A stretch of 64,000 bases of DNA from assembly GCA_964636545.1 (NCBI GenBank), contig CAZWSR010000002.1:32001-96000 (forward strand). Reading direction: 5' to 3'. Source of the DNA: Candidatus Undinarchaeota archaeon. GTDB lineage: Archaea > Undinarchaeota > Undinarchaeia > Undinarchaeales > UBA543. Both the position numbers and the translations under genes were made by a program. Below are positions 25,984 through 53,868 of this stretch, one piece after another; position 1 is the first letter of the stretch, and each line of letters starts with the position of its first letter. The notes under the pieces are model-generated. The model saw only the letters and a program-made list of their open reading frames with translations, was not told the origin of the DNA and ran no database searches.

Positions 25984-26450
25984 TGACAAAAATTAAAAAA
26001 ATAACAAGAGAGGAATTTGTATATATGTGGTTAAGTGCTAGCGTAGAAATTTATGGTTCTATTGAAAATGTGATGGAAGAAATAAACAAAAAATTGGACA
26101 AAAAAAACAGAGGAATGCGTAGGTGTTTTATTTTTCTTGCAAGTAGATGGGAAGGTATAGATGGTGTTATAGAGTTTCTGATAGAAAACAACCTTAGGTT
26201 TATAGATGATTATACTATGAATGACCTATTTGATTGTTGTGACTATATGCTTAAAGATATTGATAAATTAAAAAAAGGGTATGAAACGTATTTGAAAATA
26301 TTAAAAGAAAAAAAACAAATAGAGAAAATAGAGGAAGTGATTGAAGAAATTAAAAAAGAGATTGAGATGCATCAGAATTTTAGTGAAAAAAAGGTTGATC
26401 GCGTTATAGAAAAAATGAAGGAAGAAACAAAGAGAAGGTTGGGGGGTTGA
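25983..26450 (+). CDS. hypothetical protein (AT-rich ORFan)
   Basis: 155-aa ORF coupled to neighbours. Confidence 0.55.
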   Translation: MTKIKKITREEFVYMWLSASVEIYGSIENVMEEINKKLDKKNRGMRRCFIFLASRWEGIDGVIEFLIENNLRFIDDYTMNDLFDCCDYMLKDIDKLKKGYETYLKILKEKKQIEKIEEVIEEIKKEIEMHQNFSEKKVDRVIEKMKEETKRRLGG

Positions 26451-27235
26451 AGAAAATGAGTGATAGACGAAAAGTAACTCCAAATTTTTATGCAATGGTT
26501 TTACTACTTAGTTGTTTGAATGAGGTTGAGAATGTGCAAGCCATGAGTATAGCACTAGATATGTTGTTTATTGATGTTGAAAAAAAAGAAAACGGGAATG
26601 TTTTTCTAAAGGGGTTATTTAATATTACAAATGAAAAAGAGTTTGAAAAACAAACAAAAAAACTTAATTACTTAGTTACAGGAGAAAAACCAAAAAAAGC
26701 AACAGCCGCTGCCCTTACTGTGTTTTTAAATGATTGGAGAGAAACCAAAAAAGATATGGTATCGGCGTTGAAAGGTATTAAAAAACAAAGTAAAAAAACA
26801 CAACGTAAAGATAAAAAAACATTAAAAATTCGGGTGTTGCACACCCCAAATCAAGCTGCAAGAATTTTGTTGTTGTCTTGGTTAACACACGACAATAGAA
26901 TAGAAGAGAATTTAGAGGTTATGAAAAATGTTATTTTGCCATTCAAAGGTATAGCTGCTGGATATCTTTTTTTAGGAATAGTATACAAGGTTTCTAGTGA
27001 AGAGAATTTTAGAGAAATAATAATAGAACGTACAAGATTGGGTATCTCTTATGAAAACCCATATAAAAAAACAGCAAAGGCACTTGGAACTTTGTTTGGT
27101 GATGAAGAAGAAGTTGAAAAACTCATTTTGGCTTGGGGAAATTTATTAGAAAAAAAGAAAGGAACGGTGGAACTTCCAGGATCAAAAGAGGGTATTGAAG
27201 AAACTATAGTTGATGTTCAAAAAGTGATTGATTGA
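26447..27235 (+). CDS. hypothetical protein with internal two-fold repeat
   Basis: TPN...LLLS.L, G..FL, P.K.TA.AL each occur twice. Confidence 0.55.
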   Translation: MKKMSDRRKVTPNFYAMVLLLSCLNEVENVQAMSIALDMLFIDVEKKENGNVFLKGLFNITNEKEFEKQTKKLNYLVTGEKPKKATAAALTVFLNDWRETKKDMVSALKGIKKQSKKTQRKDKKTLKIRVLHTPNQAARILLLSWLTHDNRIEENLEVMKNVILPFKGIAAGYLFLGIVYKVSSEENFREIIIERTRLGISYENPYKKTAKALGTLFGDEEEVEKLILAWGNLLEKKKGTVELPGSKEGIEETIVDVQKVID

Positions 27236-27350
27236 GGGGTTGGCTCAAGTAATAAAAGAATTAAAATTGAGTATGGTTAGTAAGAAAGAGTGAAAGAAGA
27301 TAAAAAAAGATAAGTATTTATGTTATAAAAAAGAATTGTGTTTGATAAAA

Positions 27351-27713
27351 ATGACTAAAAAAAACATTGATGTTTTAAAAAAGGGGGCACAAAATGAAGA
27401 TATTGCTTTTGAATTAATAAATAATTGGGTTTCAAAATCGCGGGGTTTTGGGGAGAAATATGTAGATTTAAAGATTTATGTTTTGGAAAAAATGATGAAA
27501 AAGTGTGTAGAAGATGATTTGGGTCCGACTTTTATGCATTTTTGTTATGATATTACAATAAACCAAACTAAAGAATTTATAGATCTTGTAAAACAATTGG
27601 GTTATTTAGTAGAAAAAGAACAAACTATTTTAATATTTGATGAAATTGGAAAGTGGTTTAATTATTGGAGTAATTTAGAAAGATATCTAAAACGTGGATA
27701 TCAACATAGATAA
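27351..27713 (+). CDS. hypothetical protein
   Basis: AT-rich ORF of about 120 aa. Confidence 0.45.
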   Translation: MTKKNIDVLKKGAQNEDIAFELINNWVSKSRGFGEKYVDLKIYVLEKMMKKCVEDDLGPTFMHFCYDITINQTKEFIDLVKQLGYLVEKEQTILIFDEIGKWFNYWSNLERYLKRGYQHR

Positions 27714-28531
27714 AAATTATTCAAAAATTAATAATTTTTTAAAATTAGTGAATTATTTACCATATAGTAAATAAATAGGGTGGTGTGACCCCTTAGTTGC
27801 GAGTGGAGATGATGAAGGTGGTATGTGGTTTGATTTTTTTTATTATATTATTATCTATATGGTAAATATATATATATATATATATATAAATTTTTTCCTC
27901 AAAATTCTAAAAACACTTCTTATGGAAAAATAATTGAAATTTTTTATCACAACCCAAACTAAAAAACCTAATATTTTTTTGATCAATAAAATAAAAAAAA
28001 ACTAAAATATTTTTATTAATATTTTATTTTTCTCACTATTTCCCTTTCTTTATTTTTTATCACCAAATATTATGGGGTGGGTTCACAAATAGGACAAAGG
28101 GCCCCAATAACCCAACGTATTCAGGGGGGCATTCCTCAAACCCTTTTAGGGATTATTCTAAAACCATCAATAACCACCATCAACCCCGCCATTTCCTATG
28201 GACAGTTACTGGTTTTGTTATTTCACTGAAAAACGAATATTTTTCTGTTCTTTTTCTTTTCCTCTTTTTTACCCACTACCCACTACCTACTACCAACCAC
28301 CTTTATTTCCTCTGGAACCCCTATACTAAAACCGGCACCAGTAGAACCCACACTTCATCTGGAACCAAATACTCCAAAAACACCACTCAAAACCTCCAAA
28401 ACACTTCCAGACGAAGCCAAGGGGACACACCCCTACAACAAAGCTTATATACCCTAATTTCATATGCAACTATTAGTCGCATAGGTGGGGAGAATGGCAC
28501 CCATTCTTATGCACTTCGGTGGGTTTATCCA
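27714..28531. other. putative replication origin oriC
   Basis: Gene-free 0.8 kb before cdc6-DP1-DP2. ORB-like boxes: (-)~28184-28203 TCCATAGGAAATGGCGGGG, (-)~28298-28320 GTTCCAGAGGAAATAAAGG, (-)~28347-28366 GTTCCAGATGAAG, (+)~28405-28425 TTCCAGACGAAGCCAAGGGG. AT-rich DUE 27830-28060 with (AT)11; strand-composition switch. Confidence 0.8.
27751..27777 (+). promoter_or_regulatory. 27-bp site copy 2 at left edge of oriC (inverted variant at 27848-27868)
   Basis: Identical to 25601-25627. Confidence 0.7.
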
Positions 28532-29725
28532 ATGGCACAACAAAATCTTCATGACTTATTTGATGACTTTCTAAATCGGGCTCCGCACTTCACAAGGAAG
28601 GACGCGCTCCAAGACACATATACTCCAAGCCAGGTTCCGCACCGGGCTGAGCAAATCAATCAGCTTGCTCAAATCCTGGTTTCTGCACTCCGTGGTGAAA
28701 AACCAAGCAATGTGTTTCTTTATGGCAAAACAGGTACTGGGAAAACCCTAGTTTCTCGATATGTTGGAGAAGAACTTGAAAAAAAGGCTGCAGCTCAGAA
28801 CATGGCACTCAAAATGTGTTACATCAACTGCAAACTTGACAAAATCAACACCGCATACCGACTATTCGCTCGTTTCTTAGCAGAATTTGGAGAAGAGGTG
28901 CCACCAACTGGCCTTCCAACACACGAAGTTTATACACAATTCTTAAACACAATGAATAAACGCAAAGGAATTTTTATCTTGATTTTGGATGAAATTGATT
29001 CACTGGATGACACAGACATTCTCTACAATCTTTCGCGCATAAATACAGAGCTGAAGAATAGCCGAGTGAGCATAATTGGCATCTCCAATGACCTCTCCTT
29101 CACAAACAACCTTGATCCACGCATAAAATCGTCACTTTCAGAGGAAGAACTCGTATTTCCGCCATACAATGCTAATCAAATCAGCGACATCTTAACCCAG
29201 CGCGCAGAACTTGCACTTCAGAAAAACATACTTGATTCTAGTGTGATTCCAAAATGTGCTGCATTAGCTGCTCAAGAACATGGGGATGCTCGCAGAGCAC
29301 TTGATTTGCTTCGTGTTGCTTGCGAAATTGCAGAGAGAAAAGGGTCCCAAAAAATCGAAAGCGTGCACGTTGATGATGCACAAAAGAAACTTGATATCGA
29401 CCGTGTTGTTGAAGTTGTCAAAACCCAACCTCGCCAGTCTCAGCTTGTACTTCACAGCATAATCTATCTTACTGATTTGAATAAGGAAGACATTGGAACT
29501 GGTGATGTGTATGAGGTTTACCAAACATTTTGCAAACAAACCGGTCTCTCCCCACTTACCCAGCGCCGCGTTTCAGACCTAATCTCAGAATTGGATATGC
29601 TTAGCTTAATAAATTCATCAGTTATTTCAATGGGGCGCTATGGCCGAACCCGCAAAATTAAACTGGAAATAAGTGGGCGGGCACTTGAAAAATCCAAAGG
29701 AATTCTTGATGAGGAGTTGTCATGA
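28532..29725 (+). CDS. cdc6: Orc1/Cdc6 replication initiator
   Basis: YGKTGTGKT, LDEID, FPPYNANQ, HGDARRALDLLR, GRYGRTR wH. Confidence 0.97.
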   Translation: MAQQNLHDLFDDFLNRAPHFTRKDALQDTYTPSQVPHRAEQINQLAQILVSALRGEKPSNVFLYGKTGTGKTLVSRYVGEELEKKAAAQNMALKMCYINCKLDKINTAYRLFARFLAEFGEEVPPTGLPTHEVYTQFLNTMNKRKGIFILILDEIDSLDDTDILYNLSRINTELKNSRVSIIGISNDLSFTNNLDPRIKSSLSEEELVFPPYNANQISDILTQRAELALQKNILDSSVIPKCAALAAQEHGDARRALDLLRVACEIAERKGSQKIESVHVDDAQKKLDIDRVVEVVKTQPRQSQLVLHSIIYLTDLNKEDIGTGDVYEVYQTFCKQTGLSPLTQRRVSDLISELDMLSLINSSVISMGRYGRTRKIKLEISGRALEKSKGILDEELS

Positions 29726-46018: not shown

Positions 46019-46363
46019 ATGGCTGTATGTAATTTAACTGAATTAATGGGAAAGGATGTCTACACACGCAACGCAAAGTTCGTTGGGAAAATAGACGACA
46101 CTATGATAGATACTGAGAAGGGTAACTTATACGGAGTAGCTGTTGGTTTGACAAAAGAAAGTTTCTTGTCAAAAGCACTAACAGGCTCTGAAGCTGGAGT
46201 CCGCAAGTCAATCTTGATTCCATACCGCGAAATTATTTCTGCAGAGGACATAATTATTGTTACAGTTCCAAAGCAGTATGAGCGACCAGAAGATGTTGCA
46301 ACACCAACCGACGAGGCTGAAGAAATTATCTTGCCTGGTGTTGGCGGAAGCGAAGAAATTTAA
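46019..46363 (+). CDS. PRC-barrel domain protein (CdpB-like)
   Basis: GKDVYT..AKFVGKIDD...IPYREI.SAEDIIIV. Confidence 0.8.
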   Translation: MAVCNLTELMGKDVYTRNAKFVGKIDDTMIDTEKGNLYGVAVGLTKESFLSKALTGSEAGVRKSILIPYREIISAEDIIIVTVPKQYERPEDVATPTDEAEEIILPGVGGSEEI

Positions 46364-46396: not shown

Positions 46397-48076
46397 CTAG
46401 GTCTCTATCTCCACTTCATATACCTCAACCCACCACAACGCATCCTTGTTACCCTCTTTTGCAAGAGCTATTAAATATGTTTTTACAGTCTCTTTCATAA
46501 TTCCACCAGTAATCACTTTCAGCTCTCGCGCAATTACTCCTGGTGTGATCTTTTTTCTCCACTCTTTCTCATCCATCTTTCGGATGTTCTGTATATAATT
46601 AAGGATGTATGACTCACGGTAGCTTTTAGCCAGTTTCCTGTTGTGAACCATAATCCACCAGGATGCTTCATCCACCCCTCTCTCTGCCATTCTTGCCATA
46701 GCATTTTTTATCACAGCATTTGAAGAGTATATTTCACGAGATTTCAGGAATTTTATTACCTCTTTAAAAAATGTTTTGCGCTTCCAGTCCTTTTCTGACT
46801 CATTTATTCTCACTCGTTTCAAATACTGAAGAATAGTGATTTCAAGCAGTTTATCTCTGTCCAACTGTTTGTGATTTTTTAACCACCACTTTGCTACTGC
46901 AATATTTTCTCCCCCCAAATATTCCAAATGATTTATTATAGCATCTATTTTTCCGTTTTCTACTCCCATCTCTTTTATGAAACTTTCTAGTCTGCTGGCG
47001 CCTGTTTCCTTCACCCATTTTATTCTCGGCATATTCTCTTGCACAGTTTTGATATAGCAAACCAGTAGCTGATTCATGATAGACATTATCTTTTCATTAT
47101 CCCAAACAGGAACTGCGATTAAAAGGTCTTCCCTCTTTATTGTAAGCTTCCAACAATCCTCTTCTTTTTTTATTATCCTAGACCGTTTCAGCATATTGAA
47201 CAAGTGTTCATGTTTTGCTTTAATCCAGCCATTTTCATTGCGTCCTCTTGTATATGTGAATGCTAGAATATCTCTGTCTTTGCATGTTTCTCTCAGGTTC
47301 TTCCATAAGATATTTTCAGGATCTGCTTTTACTTTCTCAATCAAGATCTTTAGCAAGTATAAGTAACTTGGATTTAGTTTTGAAAGTTTTCTAAGTGTTT
47401 TCTTATCTAATGTAATCACTTTTGGATTCGGATTTGTTAACTGTTTTATTTCCTTTTGTTTTTTCTCTGGTTTTTCTTCAGATCCGTGAAGCCCCTGCCA
47501 CCAAATCGTCTCATCCACTCTTTGGCTTGAAAGTTTGTCAATATATTTTCGGACACTTCTTTCATCTAATCTTTTTAGTCCTTTTTTCCTTAGAAGTTTG
47601 GTTATCTTTTCAATTCCAGTTTCTTTCTGCTTTTTCTCCTTACCCCATCGTTTCTCCATGACTTCTGCAAGATAACAAATAATGAGCTGTTCTTCGATAC
47701 TAAAAAGTCCTTCTATACTCTCTCCTGGAATAGCTACTAAAATTTCCTCTGGGCTTATCTTCAAATAAGCGCCACCTGCTTTTCTATCCCACTCAACTAT
47801 TCCTGCTCGTTTCAAATGGTTATAAAACTGGCGCGGATGCACGGTTATGTCACTACTTGCCTCGCCAGTGGAGAAAAAGATTTTGAATACTTGAACTTTT
47901 ACACCTTCACAAGTTCTGCTAAAATCTACCCATCTTACTTTTTCAGGATCTGGTTTTACAACTGTTATCAGCCGTTTCAACAAAAACAGATTTGTTTTAC
48001 TCAGGCGAGCTAATTTTTTTATTATATCTTTTGGCAAACTCCAGATGTGGGGATCAATTTGTTTTATAGATGTCAT
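46397..48076 (-). CDS. hypothetical repeat protein
   Basis: Two ~200-aa repeats and four WW-terminated modules. Confidence 0.65.
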   Translation of the reverse strand: MTSIKQIDPHIWSLPKDIIKKLARLSKTNLFLLKRLITVVKPDPEKVRWVDFSRTCEGVKVQVFKIFFSTGEASSDITVHPRQFYNHLKRAGIVEWDRKAGGAYLKISPEEILVAIPGESIEGLFSIEEQLIICYLAEVMEKRWGKEKKQKETGIEKITKLLRKKGLKRLDERSVRKYIDKLSSQRVDETIWWQGLHGSEEKPEKKQKEIKQLTNPNPKVITLDKKTLRKLSKLNPSYLYLLKILIEKVKADPENILWKNLRETCKDRDILAFTYTRGRNENGWIKAKHEHLFNMLKRSRIIKKEEDCWKLTIKREDLLIAVPVWDNEKIMSIMNQLLVCYIKTVQENMPRIKWVKETGASRLESFIKEMGVENGKIDAIINHLEYLGGENIAVAKWWLKNHKQLDRDKLLEITILQYLKRVRINESEKDWKRKTFFKEVIKFLKSREIYSSNAVIKNAMARMAERGVDEASWWIMVHNRKLAKSYRESYILNYIQNIRKMDEKEWRKKITPGVIARELKVITGGIMKETVKTYLIALAKEGNKDALWWVEVYEVEIET

Positions 48077-48199
48077 CTACTATACTAATCCAGACAAAGT
48101 TATATATAATCTTTTCTCAAAATTCCAAAAAATAAAAATAACAACCAACAACATCTTACTGCTGTTGGTCCTTGGAAGTTTTTGTTTAAACTTTTTCCT

Positions 48200-48637
48200 T
48201 TATTCTGCAGGTGCTTCTTCTGGCGCTGGCTCTTCAGCTGGAGCAGCTTCCTCAGCCGGAGCTTCAGGTGCTGGCTCTTCTGCTGGCGCCTCAGCTTCAG
48301 GAGCAGGTTCAGCTGGTGCTTCCTCTGCTGGAGCTTCTTCCGCTGGTGCGGTTTCTGCTTCAACTGGTGCGTCTGCTGCTGGTTCTGCTGGTGCAGCTCC
48401 TGCTAGCGCAGCCATCTCCTTAACTTTTGCGCACACGAAGTCAATTACTTCAGGTGCATCCGGAATTGTAAAGCTCTTTTTGAACCTCTTAGATCCGTCC
48501 GGCGCAAAGAAACCACGTGAGATCGCAATGAACTCGTTGGTTCCTTCTGGTGCAATAGCTCTCTTTCGAGCAACTTCAAGGAAGTTGTTGTTTCCAAAGG
48601 GAACTTCTTCTGCTTTTATTGTTTCAAATTCTACCAT
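48200..48637 (-). CDS. small beta-rich protein (possible PC4/Pur-like nucleic-acid-binding fold) with A/E/P tail
   Basis: FGNNNFLEVARK...FIAISRGF...RFKKSFTIP; fold is inference. Confidence 0.55.
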   Translation of the reverse strand: MVEFETIKAEEVPFGNNNFLEVARKRAIAPEGTNEFIAISRGFFAPDGSKRFKKSFTIPDAPEVIDFVCAKVKEMAALAGAAPAEPAADAPVEAETAPAEEAPAEEAPAEPAPEAEAPAEEPAPEAPAEEAAPAEEPAPEEAPAE

Positions 48638-48742
48638 TTTCTTTTTCCTCCATAGTAACATCCAAAGAACTCTAGAATTTTCCTAGGTTTGAATTGTAAC
48701 TTTTTGCAATCTAGAACTATCTTAAGTTATTTAAAAAGTTTC

Positions 48743-50526: not shown

Positions 50527-50965
50527 CTCACAAATTTATACTTGATTCTAAACTCTAAATTCCAAACTCCAAACTCCATTCTACTTCTCACAAACTGGAT
50601 TTTTACGAACAAACTCAGACCCCTGTCCTTTTCATATCTCACAAATAACCCCGAAACAGCTATATAGCTCCAGGCTATACTGATATATCTCACAAAGCGC
50701 CGGTAGTTTAGCCTGGTATGACCCGAGCTTCCCAAGCTCGAAACTCGAGTTCAAATCTCGGCCGGCGCACTCTCACAATCCTTATTTCTTACCCTCATAG
50801 CACACCATATTGGTGTGAAAATAACTCTCACAAACGAACATTTCAGTTATTTTTCGGTATGGCGCATGCTATCGGTTTCTGAAAAACGTTGTTTTAATGT
50901 ATTAAACGTATCTGATCACAGCTAAAACCTATATCCTCAACAATATAAATTATAGGTCTCACAAC
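50527..50965 (+). repeat. CTCACAAA array (left arm)
   Basis: Exact copies at 50527, 50587, 50638, 50689, 50827; variants at 50772, 50958. Confidence 0.85.
50697..50769 (+). tRNA. tRNA-Gly(CCC)
   Basis: GCGCCGG/CCGGCGC acceptor, CGAGC-TTCCCAA-GCTCG, GTTCAAATC. Confidence 0.95.
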
Positions 50966-51426
50966 CAACTCCCCCAATACCTGACAAATGTCATGTTTAC
51001 CATAAAACACCACATTTTGCTCCAAAAACCACCCTTTTTCTCACTTTTCTTGTATTTTCCTCATTTTTCCTGTATTTTCCCCAAATCTCACTAAACTCCA
51101 CCACATTAGTGACAAACGTCACTCTTTAGGTATTTTTTTCTCCTACTGCCCAGTGCCCACTACCTACTGCCAACATTTCCTCTATTATCGCAACGTTTTC
51201 CTACAAAAACCAATAACAACAAAAATGTCAGGTCATCAAACCGCTAACAAGAAATATGTCATCTTACATATCTTACACATTTTAGTGACATATAGACCCT
51301 TTGCCCTACAAAAAAAACCGATAGCAAGAGAACAACACCGATAGCAGTAAACTGTCCGATATGTAAGCTTACATATCTTACACATTTTTCGAAAGGTTTA
51401 TAAAGGATAAACCACTACCCCTCGGT

Positions 51427-51975
51427 ATGAAACTATTCTCTTTTTTCAAGAAAAAAGCCAAAAATGTGTCCGATATGTCAGGTGAAGTGTCAGATGACAC
51501 ATCAGATATGTCAGATGACAAATCTTACACTTCAGAAGTGACAAATGCCACTGTTTCACGCGAAGATCCGCTTTTTTCCATTTCCAGACAATTAACTCAG
51601 GTTCAATACGAATTACGTGAAATTAAACCACTAATCGAGTCCAGTACTCAAAGTTTACGAGAAGATCACTATCGATTACTTGAAGAACAAGCAAAAAGTG
51701 TTGAAGAATACAAAAAACACCTCTCATACAAGCGCGAAAACCTGAAGCAAGCGAAGGATAAGGTCGAAAAAGAGCTCAAACATGTTGAAGTTGATGCCAA
51801 AATCTTAGATCATGTTTCAATTGCTCCAAAACGTACTATTGAAATTTCTGAAGATTTGAAAATTAGTCGTGGTTACGCTGCTGAACGAATAAAAGCTTTG
51901 CTTGAAGCAGGGCAAATTACTCGCTTCAAACAAGGTCGAAAAGCATATTATAGAATTCCAAAACCAGAAAATTAG
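51427..51975 (+). CDS. amphipathic-helix / coiled-coil / C-terminal winged-helix DNA-binding protein
   Basis: MKLFSFFKKK; heptads; EISEDLKISRGYAAERIKALLEAGQI...GRKAYY. Confidence 0.75.
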   Translation: MKLFSFFKKKAKNVSDMSGEVSDDTSDMSDDKSYTSEVTNATVSREDPLFSISRQLTQVQYELREIKPLIESSTQSLREDHYRLLEEQAKSVEEYKKHLSYKRENLKQAKDKVEKELKHVEVDAKILDHVSIAPKRTIEISEDLKISRGYAAERIKALLEAGQITRFKQGRKAYYRIPKPEN

Positions 51976-51983
51976 GTCGCTTA

Positions 51984-52091
51984 CTACTTCTTTTGTCTCT
52001 CTGCCTTAGCCTTTCTTTTACGTGTTCTTTTCTTCTTAGTTCGCCTACGCATACTACCCTTCTTCTTCATTTTGTTAGGTGCCATCTTCAT
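51984..52091 (-). CDS. rpl41e: ribosomal protein eL41 (eS32)-like small basic protein
   Basis: MAPNKMKKKGSMRRRTKKKRTRKRK resembles archaeal L41e; own TTTTATAAA box about 25 bp upstream. Confidence 0.55.
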   Translation of the reverse strand: MKMAPNKMKKKGSMRRRTKKKRTRKRKAKAERQKK

Positions 52092-52186
52092 AGTGGCTTC
52101 TTGTTGAGACAACTGGTTTATAAAACTTCCTATATTCTTTAGTACAATAAATTTAATTCTCACAAACTCCGCCTTGCCGCGGACAA

Positions 52187-52277
52187 TGTGCAGGCATTGA
52201 AGTTGGTTACTGCACAAGTCTCAAACCTTCGGTTTGAGAGGATGGCATGAGGGCATTCACGCTTCGCGTGAAGCCCT
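52187..52277. repeat. cluster of three hairpins, two with C-GAA-G triloops on the minus strand (REP-like or terminator)
   Basis: TGTGCAG/CTGCACA; CTCAAACC-TTC-GGTTTGAG; GGGCATTCACGC-TTC-GCGTGAAGCCC. Confidence 0.6.
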
Positions 52278-52300
52278 GTCTTGAAATTGGTTCGTTCTAC

Positions 52301-52894
52301 TTAGTCGCTTCCTCTCGCTTTTGCAGTCTGAACCAATGAATTATACTCATTAGCAATATGCTCCCAAAACTTACTAAACTGCGTACTTGGTCTCACAATT
52401 TTCTTGTAATATTTCTGTTTTGAATGTTCATGATGGAATTCTTCACGCTCTAATCTTACCATCCCAACTCTCCTCAATCTGGGCAAGATCACGTTGTAAA
52501 ACGTAGCTTTTGAGAACCCTTTCTCTCGAATAAACGCCCCAATCTCGTCTCCTTTCAATACCTGTCTCTCAAATAACCTATTCATAAACTCTAGGGCTGT
52601 CAAGTGGTACTTTTGCTGATATTTTGGAGGAAAAACCAGCTCTAGTATCTGGTTTAGCTCAACCCTCACATTCTTATGATATGCCCAATCTGACCTCAAT
52701 CTTTTAACATCATCAAACCACATTGACTCTTTGCTTGGCACACCTCGACTTGCAGGTCCCCTCGCTGAAAAAGTTGGTTTTTTGCCTTCATCTCTCTCCA
52801 CAACTTGCACAACCTCGGATGCATATTCAATATCATTATGGTGTTTTTGGTCCATAGTCGCCGGTATGCTATCTTGGTATTTAAAACTTACCAT
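52301..52894 (-). CDS. winged-helix-like DNA-binding protein
   Basis: EIGAFIREKGFSKATFYNVILPRLRRVGMV HTH/wing pattern. Confidence 0.65.
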   Translation of the reverse strand: MVSFKYQDSIPATMDQKHHNDIEYASEVVQVVERDEGKKPTFSARGPASRGVPSKESMWFDDVKRLRSDWAYHKNVRVELNQILELVFPPKYQQKYHLTALEFMNRLFERQVLKGDEIGAFIREKGFSKATFYNVILPRLRRVGMVRLEREEFHHEHSKQKYYKKIVRPSTQFSKFWEHIANEYNSLVQTAKARGSD

Positions 52895-53119: not shown

Positions 53120-53431
53120 TTACTCACTTTCTGGAATATTTTCTTCAGTTCTTTGCGCTAAACTCTTGAAAAGCAAATTTTCAAAGTCATTTGCCAGTGC
53201 ATTTCCAGCTTCAGTCAAACTTATGTATTTTACACGGCCATCCCTGTTAAATTCAACAAGTTTGTGATCTTGCATCTTTTGTAGCAATTTTACAGTGTGT
53301 GCGTACGTACAATCTATTCTTTTTGCTAAATTTGATGCATATGCCTCTGGATGTGCCTGTTTGATGTGTACAAGCAGTCTAGCTGGCTTTTTTCTAAGAA
53401 ACATCTCTTCTAATTCAATATTTGTTTTCAT
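53120..53431 (-). CDS. MarR-type winged-helix transcriptional regulator
   Basis: YASNLAKRIDCTYAHTVKLL...DGRVKYISLTEAG; ATG 53431 with GGGGT SD. Confidence 0.85.
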   Translation of the reverse strand: MKTNIELEEMFLRKKPARLLVHIKQAHPEAYASNLAKRIDCTYAHTVKLLQKMQDHKLVEFNRDGRVKYISLTEAGNALANDFENLLFKSLAQRTEENIPESE

Positions 53432-53615
53432 AATTTTACCCCCTGATGAACAACATCTCAAAAGTGAGAGTTGTCTTTTCTATCTTCCAACACAAGTTTT
53501 GGAATTATAAGTATTGTAATGTATCTTTAGTATTTATTCTTTTTCCAGTGACAATTGTCAGCAAATATCAAAACCGATAGCAAGCGAACCGTTCAATTTA
53601 TTACCCAAAATCTCG

Positions 53616-53868
53616 TTTGTGAGAGTTAGCTCATGTGTTAAAGTGTTTTTGAAAAATGTGAGACCGAAAAAATAGGTCTAACATTTTTGTGAGGGGCATC
53701 GGAGCATCGTAAATTCGTAGAGCCGGGGCGCCGGGGCGACGTAAAGTGGTTTTGTGAGTGAAAAACCAATTTGTGAGAGTTTGTGCAGAACCAAAATACA
53801 ACAAATCAAAAAGTTAGATCAAAAACATGCATTTGTAAGTGCTAAAAACTCTAAAATATTTTTGTGAG
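53616..53868 (-). repeat. TTTGTGAG array (right arm, inverted relative to left arm)
   Basis: Exact copies at 53616, 53686, 53751, 53770, 53861; variants at 53656, 53780, 53832. Confidence 0.85.

Follow-up and report, generated by a model that had tools for sequence, protein, structure and literature searches.

Why does the gene of a small DNA-binding protein lie within an array of repeated DNA words that covers its promoter and continues into its own coding region? This question is raised by an open reading frame (ORF) of 182 amino acids, which is located at 51427..51975 on the + strand of a 64,000-nucleotide stretch of a Candidatus Undinarchaeota genome (contig CAZWSR010000002.1, positions 32,001 to 96,000), referred to here as the window. 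The genome, G000, belongs to a DPANN archaeon from a phylum of tiny marine archaea, comprises 840,427 nt in 39 contigs and is 83% complete; the genus consists of three genomes, G000, G001 and G002, and the ORF of G002 shows 47% amino acid identity. The reading that is slightly favoured here, mainly on the basis of sequence comparisons, is that the ORF encodes an autoregulated winged helix-turn-helix (wHTH) repressor, whose operators would extend into its own leaderless ORF and which is probably associated with the membrane.

The original prediction had described a 21-bp direct repeat, accompanied by reverse-complement copies that reach into the gene. The repeat, CTTACATATCTTACACATTTT, is found in two exact copies at 51263 and 51368, and all of the inverted copies are present as well (51353, 51465 and 51502), with the correction that the first of them starts at 51353 and not at 51352. 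The repeat forms part of a 30-nt unit, which occurs three times: at 51254-51283, at 51359-51388 (93% identical) and, within the ORF, at 51506-51535 (73%). These units are located at -174, -69 and +78 from the ATG, and their spacings of 105 and 147 nt correspond to 10 and 14 turns of 10.5 bp. Composite unit 1 (51254..51283, + strand) consists of three 9-nt half-sites, is centred at about -159 from the ATG and is accompanied by additional half-sites at 51222 and 51286. Composite unit 2 (51353..51389, + strand) abuts the promoter elements and provides the left arm of a 35-nt inverted repeat, the arms of which (51355-51389 and 51460-51494) are 74% complementary and enclose the TATA box as well as the ATG and codons 1-11, with the inverted copy of the unit spanning +34 to +68. 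A degenerate 9-mer half-site has 13 matches in 51222-51525 (-205 to +98 of the ATG), six of which are located within the ORF, and an arrangement of one forward half-site, 11 nt, one reverse half-site, 9 nt and a second reverse half-site occurs three times. Genome-wide, the 9-mer is matched 385 times with a maximum of three matches per 500 nt elsewhere; since the pattern was built from this locus, the local count is circular, and the informative result is solely the lack of further clusters. The word GATATGTMAG is matched five times in the window, compared to 0.13 expected matches and none of 100 shuffles with five, and five of its six sites in the whole genome lie at the ORF locus, which confirms the predicted motif array in and around the gene. 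The sequence of 51150-52000 is the same in contigs of four metagenome runs from four studies, which differ solely by one C>T exchange at 51191 and one low-depth insertion of 3 nt; the repeats are therefore no artefact of the assembly.

The part of the array that lies inside the gene coincides with codons 14-45 (51466..51561, + strand), which encode an acidic, serine- and aspartate-rich (S/D) linker. This DNA contains six of the 9-mer half-sites (51472-51533), the inverted copy of unit 2 (51460-51494), composite unit 3 (51506-51535) and an imperfect palindrome, TGACAAATGCCA, at 51539-51550. Read in frame, the half-sites yield D-M-S, V-S, S-D and D-T, with codons such as GAT-ATG-TCA, GTG-TCA and GAC-ACA. 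Codons 14-44 and the 400 nt upstream of the gene have 14 non-low-complexity 8-mers in common, compared to 1.2 in codon shuffles, and none of 300 shuffles equalled the observed number. A comparison of G000 with G001 reveals how this stretch evolves: in the linker (codons 14-45), the proportions of synonymous (pS) and non-synonymous (pN) differences are 0.14 and 0.175 with a non-synonymous to synonymous ratio (omega) of 1.27, the differences are distributed 5/6/5 over the three codon positions, and 27 of 32 third positions are identical. In the core (codons 46-181), by contrast, pS is 0.67, pN is 0.10 and omega is 0.06, the differences are distributed 19/10/61, and 75 of 136 third positions are identical (Fisher p=0.002 for linker versus core). 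Synonymous sites are thus conserved four- to five-fold better in the linker than in the core. The identity of the linker DNA (83%) is matched by that of the promoter-proximal array (81-84%), while DNA farther upstream aligns at about 50%. The linker is constrained at the level of the DNA and not of the peptide, as had been proposed. One low-depth contig of 151 nt from a single metagenome run matches 34 nt of the linker DNA (51491-51524) with a 3-nt insertion before it runs into dissimilar, A/G-rich sequence; its source may be a relative whose linker differs.

The repeats could also lack a function and have arisen in a low-complexity stretch coding for S and D, through slippage, duplication or gene conversion. 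The linker is of low complexity and evolves fast at the protein level, as seen from its omega, and copying does occur, since the orthologous locus L019 holds an exact duplication of 26 nt upstream and in the linker. However, the synonymous sites of the linker are conserved as described above, arrays surround the TATA box in all 15 orthologues, even where the linker is poly-Lys, and both the orientations and the helical phasing are retained; this explanation is thus very improbable.

The arrays are not confined to the window. In all 15 orthologues, the promoter lies within a repeat array, as the original prediction had anticipated for homologues, and the repeated word differs by lineage. TGT[C/A/T]A-type hexamers are among the top three repeated words in the region -140..-1 of the ATG at 15 of 15 loci. 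The window and G001 carry TGTCAG/TGTAAG words together with palindromes of the TGACA-N2-TGTCA type, and in G002 the words become CGTCAT/GCGAC upstream and in the linker alike. At L016, L018 and L019, TGTCAA/TTGACA words flank the TATA box on both sides (six copies at L016); L013-L015 use CGTCA/CTTACATGTCAC, L017 uses ATGTCAACT-N4-AGTTGACAT, and L020-L022 use TTAACRYGTTAA-type words. At L021, 14 copies of an 8-nt word extend from -303 to -19, with gaps of 11 nt in 8 of 13 and of 21 nt in 3 of 13 cases. The 98% complete genome G012 contains a perfect palindrome, TTGACATGTCAA, which is found at the promoter of the orthologue only. In G002, an 18-nt unit occurs three times at spacings of 107 and 116 nt, and its third copy is again located within the ORF. 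Linker 8-mers are shared with the upstream region of the same genome to a larger extent than across genomes, namely 23 versus 12 in the window and 14 versus 6 in G002. The duplicated 26 nt of L019 represent a different motif, which reads TAMQHSIV in the linker.

The gene start bears directly on where the operators would lie. The ORF starts with MKLFSFF and is preceded by a putative B recognition element (BRE; CGAAAGG) and a TATA box (TTTATAAA), which together occupy 51390..51404 on the + strand, with the TATA box beginning at -30 from the ATG. In archaea, the distance between the TATA box and the start site places the transcript start at about the ATG in such a case, and a TATA box at -30 therefore suggests that the mRNA is leaderless. 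A TATA-like word is found at -28 to -32 in nine of the 15 orthologous loci and at -40/-41 in three, and the pattern detected none in the remaining three. Between G000 and G001, codons 1-13 differ by two synonymous changes and one non-synonymous change (omega 0.08), and the N-terminal motif occurs in 15 of 15 orthologues, so that the predicted start at MKLFSFF is upheld. A start at Met17 or Met28, as chosen by the gene callers for the relatives P0002-P0004, was rejected because of the TATA spacing and the conservation of codons 1-13.

What does this conserved N-terminus do? Codons 1-13 (MKLFSFFKKKAKN; 51427..51465, + strand) encode a hydrophobic and basic motif, a putative membrane-targeting peptide: 15 of 15 orthologues begin with M-[G/S/A/K/D]-hydrophobic-hydrophobic-x-x-hydrophobic, the conserved feature being a hydrophobic/aromatic 6-7-mer followed by Lys/Arg. 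Similar peptides are found in the organism itself at the N-terminus of SepF (MRRLLDKILKP) and in the C-terminal tails of two MinD-like proteins; in studied homologues, the C-terminal tails of MinD are membrane anchors. For SepF of Methanobrevibacter, a passage of PMC8178401 describes residues 1-12 as the membrane-binding part, which is followed by a flexible linker. The N-terminal peptide probably holds the ORF protein at the membrane. The order of the parts, membrane helix, flexible linker and core, is likewise that of archaeal SepF, with a very similar N-terminal peptide, but the core of the ORF protein consists of a long helix and a wHTH domain instead of a SepF domain: the SepF core domain (PF04472) has no match in the ORF protein or in 19 family members, and the SepF of the genome is encoded elsewhere, at C3:41755-41976.

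Two observations speak against the membrane part of this reading. The N-terminus had been called amphipathic, which is not borne out statistically: scanned in 11-residue windows, the hydrophobic moment exceeds that of shuffled sequences in 0 of 15 orthologues, and the best case is matched by 197 of 2000 shuffles. The amphipathic helix was consequently dropped as an established feature, and the segment is to be regarded as a hydrophobic and basic peptide and not as a demonstrable amphipathic helix. Furthermore, the linker next to it has shifted from strongly basic to strongly acidic, which would be odd if a polybasic stretch were important at the membrane. The first 13 residues might instead dock a partner, either as a non-canonical PCNA-interacting peptide (PIP) or as a tail contacting ParA or MinD, and this would be compatible with any reading of the array. 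With LxxFF or LFDFL ahead of Lys/Arg, the motif is similar to the hydrophobic half of the PIP box, the consensus of which is Qxx[LIM]xx[FY][FY]; a docking role would fit the non-significant amphipathicity and the presence of two MinD/ParA-like genes in the genome, and the N-termini of ParB are mentioned as contact sites for ParA in a section of PMC4331003. However, the glutamine of the PIP box cannot exist here because the motif begins at residue 1-3, so that only the LxxFF half is present, and the close similarity of the peptide to the SepF N-terminus and the MinD tails points back to the membrane, which makes a docking peptide doubtful. A resemblance of the N-terminus and of the 'EDP' box described below to PspA or ESCRT-III was considered and rejected, as it found no Pfam support in the 19 family members.

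The architecture of the remaining protein was predicted with AlphaFold2 on a 7-row alignment (mean pLDDT, the predicted local confidence, of 78). Residues 1-47 are disordered, residues 48-132 (51568..51822, + strand) form a single long helix and possible coiled coil, and residues 133-176 (51823..51954, + strand) form a wHTH of the ArsR/TrmB type, which agrees with the disordered linker and C-terminal wHTH that had been foreseen from the sequence, with a long helix in the place of the proposed coiled coil. The wHTH consists of helices 137-144 and 148-160, the latter being the recognition helix, and of strands 165-169 and 172-176, which build a two-strand wing, with pLDDT above 90. The long helix opens with two family-conserved boxes, EDPLxSISRQLT and LREDH(H/Y)R. 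VIA matches have Z values of 10-11 and a root-mean-square deviation of 1.2-3.0 over 60-65 residues; they cover the wHTH part only (residues 115-182), and the long helix has no informative match. In a Foldseek search of the PDB, the best matches, to ArsR/SmtB at 1.5e-3, missed the threshold of E<=0.001, while the family profile matches ArsR-type regulators in the PDB at 5.4e-8 and AspA at E=1.3e-5. The Pfam TrmB wHTH matches 14 of 19 family members (best E 2.7e-7); the window protein stays below the curated cut-offs of HTH_24 (18.0 versus 21.9 bits), HTH_5 (14.3 versus 22) and NCBIfam HTH_metalloreg (21 versus 55 bits), and neither Pfam nor NCBIfam contains a family that covers the whole protein. 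A homodimer prediction for residues 44-182 reached a score of 0.36 against a mark of 0.42, a value that speaks neither for nor against a dimer.

Within its phylum, the family is widespread. A word-index search retrieved five close relatives, and a profile search of 1.84 billion representatives retrieved 48 proteins at E<=1e-3, 12 at <=1e-10 and six at <=1e-30. A match at <=1e-5 was obtained in 16 of the 17 genomes searched from the phylum, and it is near-full-length in 15 of these; in G006 the match covers the wHTH only, and the 75% complete G009 has no match. The ORF family belongs to the core gene set of the Undinarchaeota. Source databases name the relatives 'winged helix-turn-helix' or 'hypothetical' only, and an atlas search returned unnamed archaeal clusters only, with scores up to 0.91. 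The literature search found no description of the family, the main text of the main Undinarchaeota paper lacks relevant terms, and the architecture of membrane-like peptide, spacer, long helix and wHTH is without a described counterpart in the literature searched.

Within the favoured reading, the wHTH would bind TGTCA/TGTAA-type half-sites, which would be grouped into the three helically phased composite operators at -174, -69 and +78 and further sites, thereby bracketing the TATA box and the leaderless start. Occupied sites would repress transcription of the gene by occlusion, looping or a roadblock, and because the mRNA would be leaderless, the operators downstream of the start would lie in coding DNA. 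In the genus, the array would have advanced into the ORF by about 130 nt, and an S/D-rich spacer would have taken the place of the ancestral poly-Lys one; acidic S/D linkers occur only in the clade of the window (the window protein, P0001, G001, P0005, G002 and P0006), and all other relatives have Lys-rich linkers. The hydrophobic and basic N-terminal peptide would keep the protein at the membrane. We infer that the protein binds its own array because arrays are universal at the ORF promoter, are unique in the genome and change together with the recognition helix, which reads SRGYAAER in the window and SRQYVSDR in G002, this co-variation being a single event among kin.

A few envelope genes with a TGACA-N2-TGTCA palindrome across the gene start might be further targets of repression by the same protein. 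With up to one mismatch, TGACAAATGTCA has 11 sites in the genome, four of which are located in or beside the ORF locus, and of the seven others, five occupy positions between -53 and +1 relative to envelope genes, in the TATA-proximal start region or over the start codon (loci L030-L034; G000 C1:111558, C1:64218, C5:25075, C6:24845 and C20:2110). These genes encode an SPFH/Band-7 protein, a membrane protein of 78 amino acids, a CARDB/Ig surface protein, a transglutaminase-like protein and Rce1-like proteins, and in three of them the palindrome overlaps the start codon and supplies the first codons, reading MTNV, MTKV and MSTV. The SPFH site is retained in G001 and G002 and not evident in G012. 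A small envelope regulon may stand behind these palindromes. A link of palindromes and arrays to one binder through regulon co-variation in G002 was tried and failed, since TGACGNNCGTCA is present in that genome at the own ORF locus only and the SPFH site is still of the TGACA type.

Several further results weigh against the self-binding repressor and its regulon. The sharing of words between linker and upstream region is significant in four of 15 loci only (0 of 300 shuffles), namely in the three of the genus and in L019; it is marginal in three (16-39 of 300) and absent in eight, so that the extension into the ORF is a feature of the clade and the promoter array is the general one. The three genomes of the genus moreover represent few independent events. 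Control palindromes made from 30 shuffled half-sites yield 0-16 sites with a median of about 2, and although 28 of the 30 remain below 11, the observed count is within their range. In G002, the SPFH promoter keeps its TGACA-type site, while the array of the ORF has changed to CGTCA words, and the palindromes and arrays may therefore not share one binder. Two wHTH-like genes adjoin the ORF and are possible binders. Finally, 13-15 sites exceed the need of simple autoregulation.

The two neighbouring genes lead to the possibility that another factor binds the repeats and that the ORF product is a target with a different job. The convergent gene of a 197-aa protein (52301..52894, - strand) keeps its place beside the ORF at 11 of 15 loci, as does the gene of a 113-aa wHTH protein (HVO_A0114/HTH_27; 53120..53461, - strand) at five of 15. 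A palindrome, TGACAATTGTCA, is also located upstream of the 113-aa gene (53549-53560), three of the six genome sites of a second motif, AAAACCGATAGCA(AG), lie in the intergenic region in front of the ORF and three elsewhere, and the SPFH operator of G002 did not shift along with the array. The 197-aa protein, which carries a helix-turn-helix-like segment and has no Pfam or NCBIfam match, is better conserved than the ORF, with identities of 85-86% within the genus and of 50-61% across the order. Its helix-turn-helix-like segment, however, is almost invariant between genomes with differing arrays, whereas the recognition helix of the ORF protein differs. In addition, L016 and L020-L022 possess arrays without a 197-aa homologue found within the 2.6-3.5 kb of these loci, and autoregulation is the commonest arrangement among small wHTH repressors. 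A foreign binder is thus considered unlikely.

Another alternative takes the large number of sites as its starting point. The array could be centromere-like and the protein its adaptor, so that a multivalent complex with jointly acting weak membrane peptides would tether an origin-proximal locus to the membrane, with autoregulation as a by-product; the mechanism would then be like that of Noc and the layout like that of ParR/parC or TubR/tubC. By analogy with known partition systems, this appears possible, though rather improbable. The 13-15 half-sites of the window and the 14 copies of L021 with their 11- and 21-nt spacing go beyond what an operator needs, each genome has a single cluster, and AspA, an archaeal centromere binder, is among the matches of the wHTH profile, as given above. 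Excerpts of the literature are in line with this idea: the helix of Noc is described as a weak membrane binder that needs nucleoprotein assembly (PMC4331003), parC of plasmid R1 as two sets of five iterons (PMC2241845), and centromere-binding proteins as usually regulating their own operon too (PMC6009700).

The centromere idea also draws on the position of the origin. The window region 26000-29725, with a GC content of 0.28 at 26-28 kb and the cumulative GC-skew peak there, is likely the chromosomal replication origin. A gene-free, AT-rich stretch of about 27714-28531 lies directly upstream of orc1/cdc6 (28532-29725) and contains a 21-nt inverted repeat (27754-27774 and 27848-27868, 90%); the genes of the small and large PolD subunits follow orc1/cdc6, all of these features lying at 26-35 kb, and the genes of RadA, RPA and ScpB are found at 8.8-12.2 kb. 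The ORF locus and the only orc1/cdc6 gene of the genome are 22 kb apart in the window, 21.7 kb in G002, 13 kb in G001 and 14 kb in G015; this distance is available in four of six genomes, as G010 and G012 have the two genes on different contigs. An origin at the ORF locus itself was rejected, because the origin features lie at 26-29.7 kb and the local AT-rich core is the TATA position at -30. Against a centromere, no gene for an NTPase or motor (ParM, TubZ or ParA) is found in the ORF neighbourhood, the two MinD/ParA-like genes being located on other contigs; the sites overlap the TATA box and the start, as is typical of a repressor, the proximity to the origin may be synteny inherited among kin, and TGACA-type palindromes also occur at other promoters. 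It is only a tentative possibility, then, that the locus represents a motor-less form of chromosome anchoring in the Undinarchaeota, in which origin-proximal iterons would be coated by a membrane-binding coiled-coil wHTH protein and the array would be centromere, operator and, in the genus, spacer-coding DNA. The array is one locus-specific cluster, and it lies where an autoregulatory operator or a plasmid-type centromere/operator would typically be found.

Comparison with known systems places the locus between several of them. Noc of Bacillus subtilis, to which the protein had been likened, shares the short hydrophobic and basic N-terminal peptide, the variable spacer and the DNA-binding domain, and according to part of PMC4331003, a multi-site array could supply avidity for a weak membrane peptide. 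By family, however, the protein is not Noc-like: the ParBc domain (the ParB/Srx-type N-terminal CTP-binding domain) is absent from the window protein at E<=0.1 and from all 19 family members at E<=0.01, the wHTH is of the ArsR/TrmB type, the host is an archaeon, and a single cluster lies at the gene's own promoter, whereas Noc sites are scattered round the chromosome. ParR-parC of R1, TubR-tubC and AspA of pNOB8 resemble the locus in combining a small binder with iterons about one helical turn apart, which cover or flank its own promoter; TubR and AspA are wHTH proteins, too, and one array could serve as operator and assembly site. In contrast to these plasmid partition systems, the ORF gene is chromosomal, single-copy and part of the phylum core, no motor gene is present in the locus, the protein has a membrane-like N-terminal peptide and an 85-residue helix, and the array is partly located within the ORF.

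ArsR/SmtB and TrmB-type repressors, including Lrs14/Sta1 of Sulfolobus, share the fold, and such repressors are typically autoregulated and bind over the TATA box or the start site. The wHTH of the ORF protein differs in being C-terminal, behind a long helix, and in having no evident metal or ligand site. Operators within coding DNA are known from gal OI in galE, lac O2 in lacZ and parS inside spo0J of B. subtilis. Similarly, the downstream operator would here fall within transcribed coding DNA, in phase with the upstream one, but the ORF gene would be its own target, its mRNA is probably leaderless, and the whole array extends over about 32 codons, with the peptide changing from poly-Lys to Ser/Asp. 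An array that overwrites the composition of a spacer, with measurable constraint at synonymous sites, is unusual.

The remainder of the locus consists of conserved and less conserved elements. Upstream, the ORF is separated from tRNA-Gly(CCC) (50697..50770, + strand) by 656 nt, for which the ORF list contains no credible ORF and Rfam no family; the tRNA gene forms the upstream edge of this non-coding region, and the adjacency is the same in three of three genus genomes. An integrated mobile element at the tRNA gene was rejected, because the order of tRNA, ORF and 197-aa gene is kept in these three genomes and the pair of ORF and 197-aa gene in 11 of 15 loci. The neighbours of the ORF are tRNA-Gly, the 197-aa and 113-aa wHTH proteins and an M42 peptidase. 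The intergenic region contains two palindromes, neither assigned to a strand, namely CTGACAAATGTCAT of the TGACA-N2-TGTCA type (50981..50994) and GTGACAAACGTCAC (51109..51122); a 29-nt block around the latter recurs within the ORF at 51528-51556 (76% alike). Two copies of the second motif occupy 51313..51346 on the + strand. Its six exact 10-mer sites are located at 50867, 51317, 51337 and 53573 of the window and at G000 C3:25979 and C3:31274, one of them upstream of the 113-aa gene, and related AAAACCGCTATGC words are found upstream of other orthologues. The genus also conserves a block of about 60 nt at 50822-50880 (TAACTCTCACAAAC...TGCTATCGGTTT), the first 16 nt of which are found again in inverted form at about 53613-53628. 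The word (C)TCTCACA(A/T) occurs in intergenic DNA at 50769, 50824, 52156, 53617 and 53771 of the window and in the upstream regions of L010, L011 and L013, often right after an AT-rich, TATA-like stretch and in several genera of the phylum.

A structured-RNA-like element is present in four copies, at 52165-52295 of the window and at G000 C1:13183-13314, C1:52846-52911 and C3:22825-22892, and also at L008 (about 775-880). The two long copies show 92% similarity over 132 nt, the two short ones share the conserved ends, and in two hairpins, compensatory changes are seen from copy to copy and from genome to genome; no Rfam match was obtained at E<=5. In G001, the element is located between tRNA-Gly and the ORF, and in the window downstream of the ORF. 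Farther upstream in the window lie the genes of a PRC-barrel protein (46019-46363), of a 559-aa protein without family and with internally repeated segments (46397-48076) and of a 153-aa protein with an Ala/Pro/Glu-rich tail (48100-48686), the low-complexity DNA of which opens spurious ORFs on both strands.

For the phylum, these results define an uncharacterised protein family in the core gene set of a DPANN lineage. The roughly 32 codons of the linker represent a case of natural dual coding, in which the constraint acts on the DNA word and not on the amino acid, and the comparison of lineages shows an array of putative binding sites that overwrites a poly-Lys spacer. As leaderless transcription puts downstream operators inside the ORF, the same may hold widely in archaea. 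Should the membrane and centromere reading prove true, one stretch of DNA would be selected as binding site, regulatory element and protein at once, and the family would provide a handle on chromosome positioning in ultra-small archaea.

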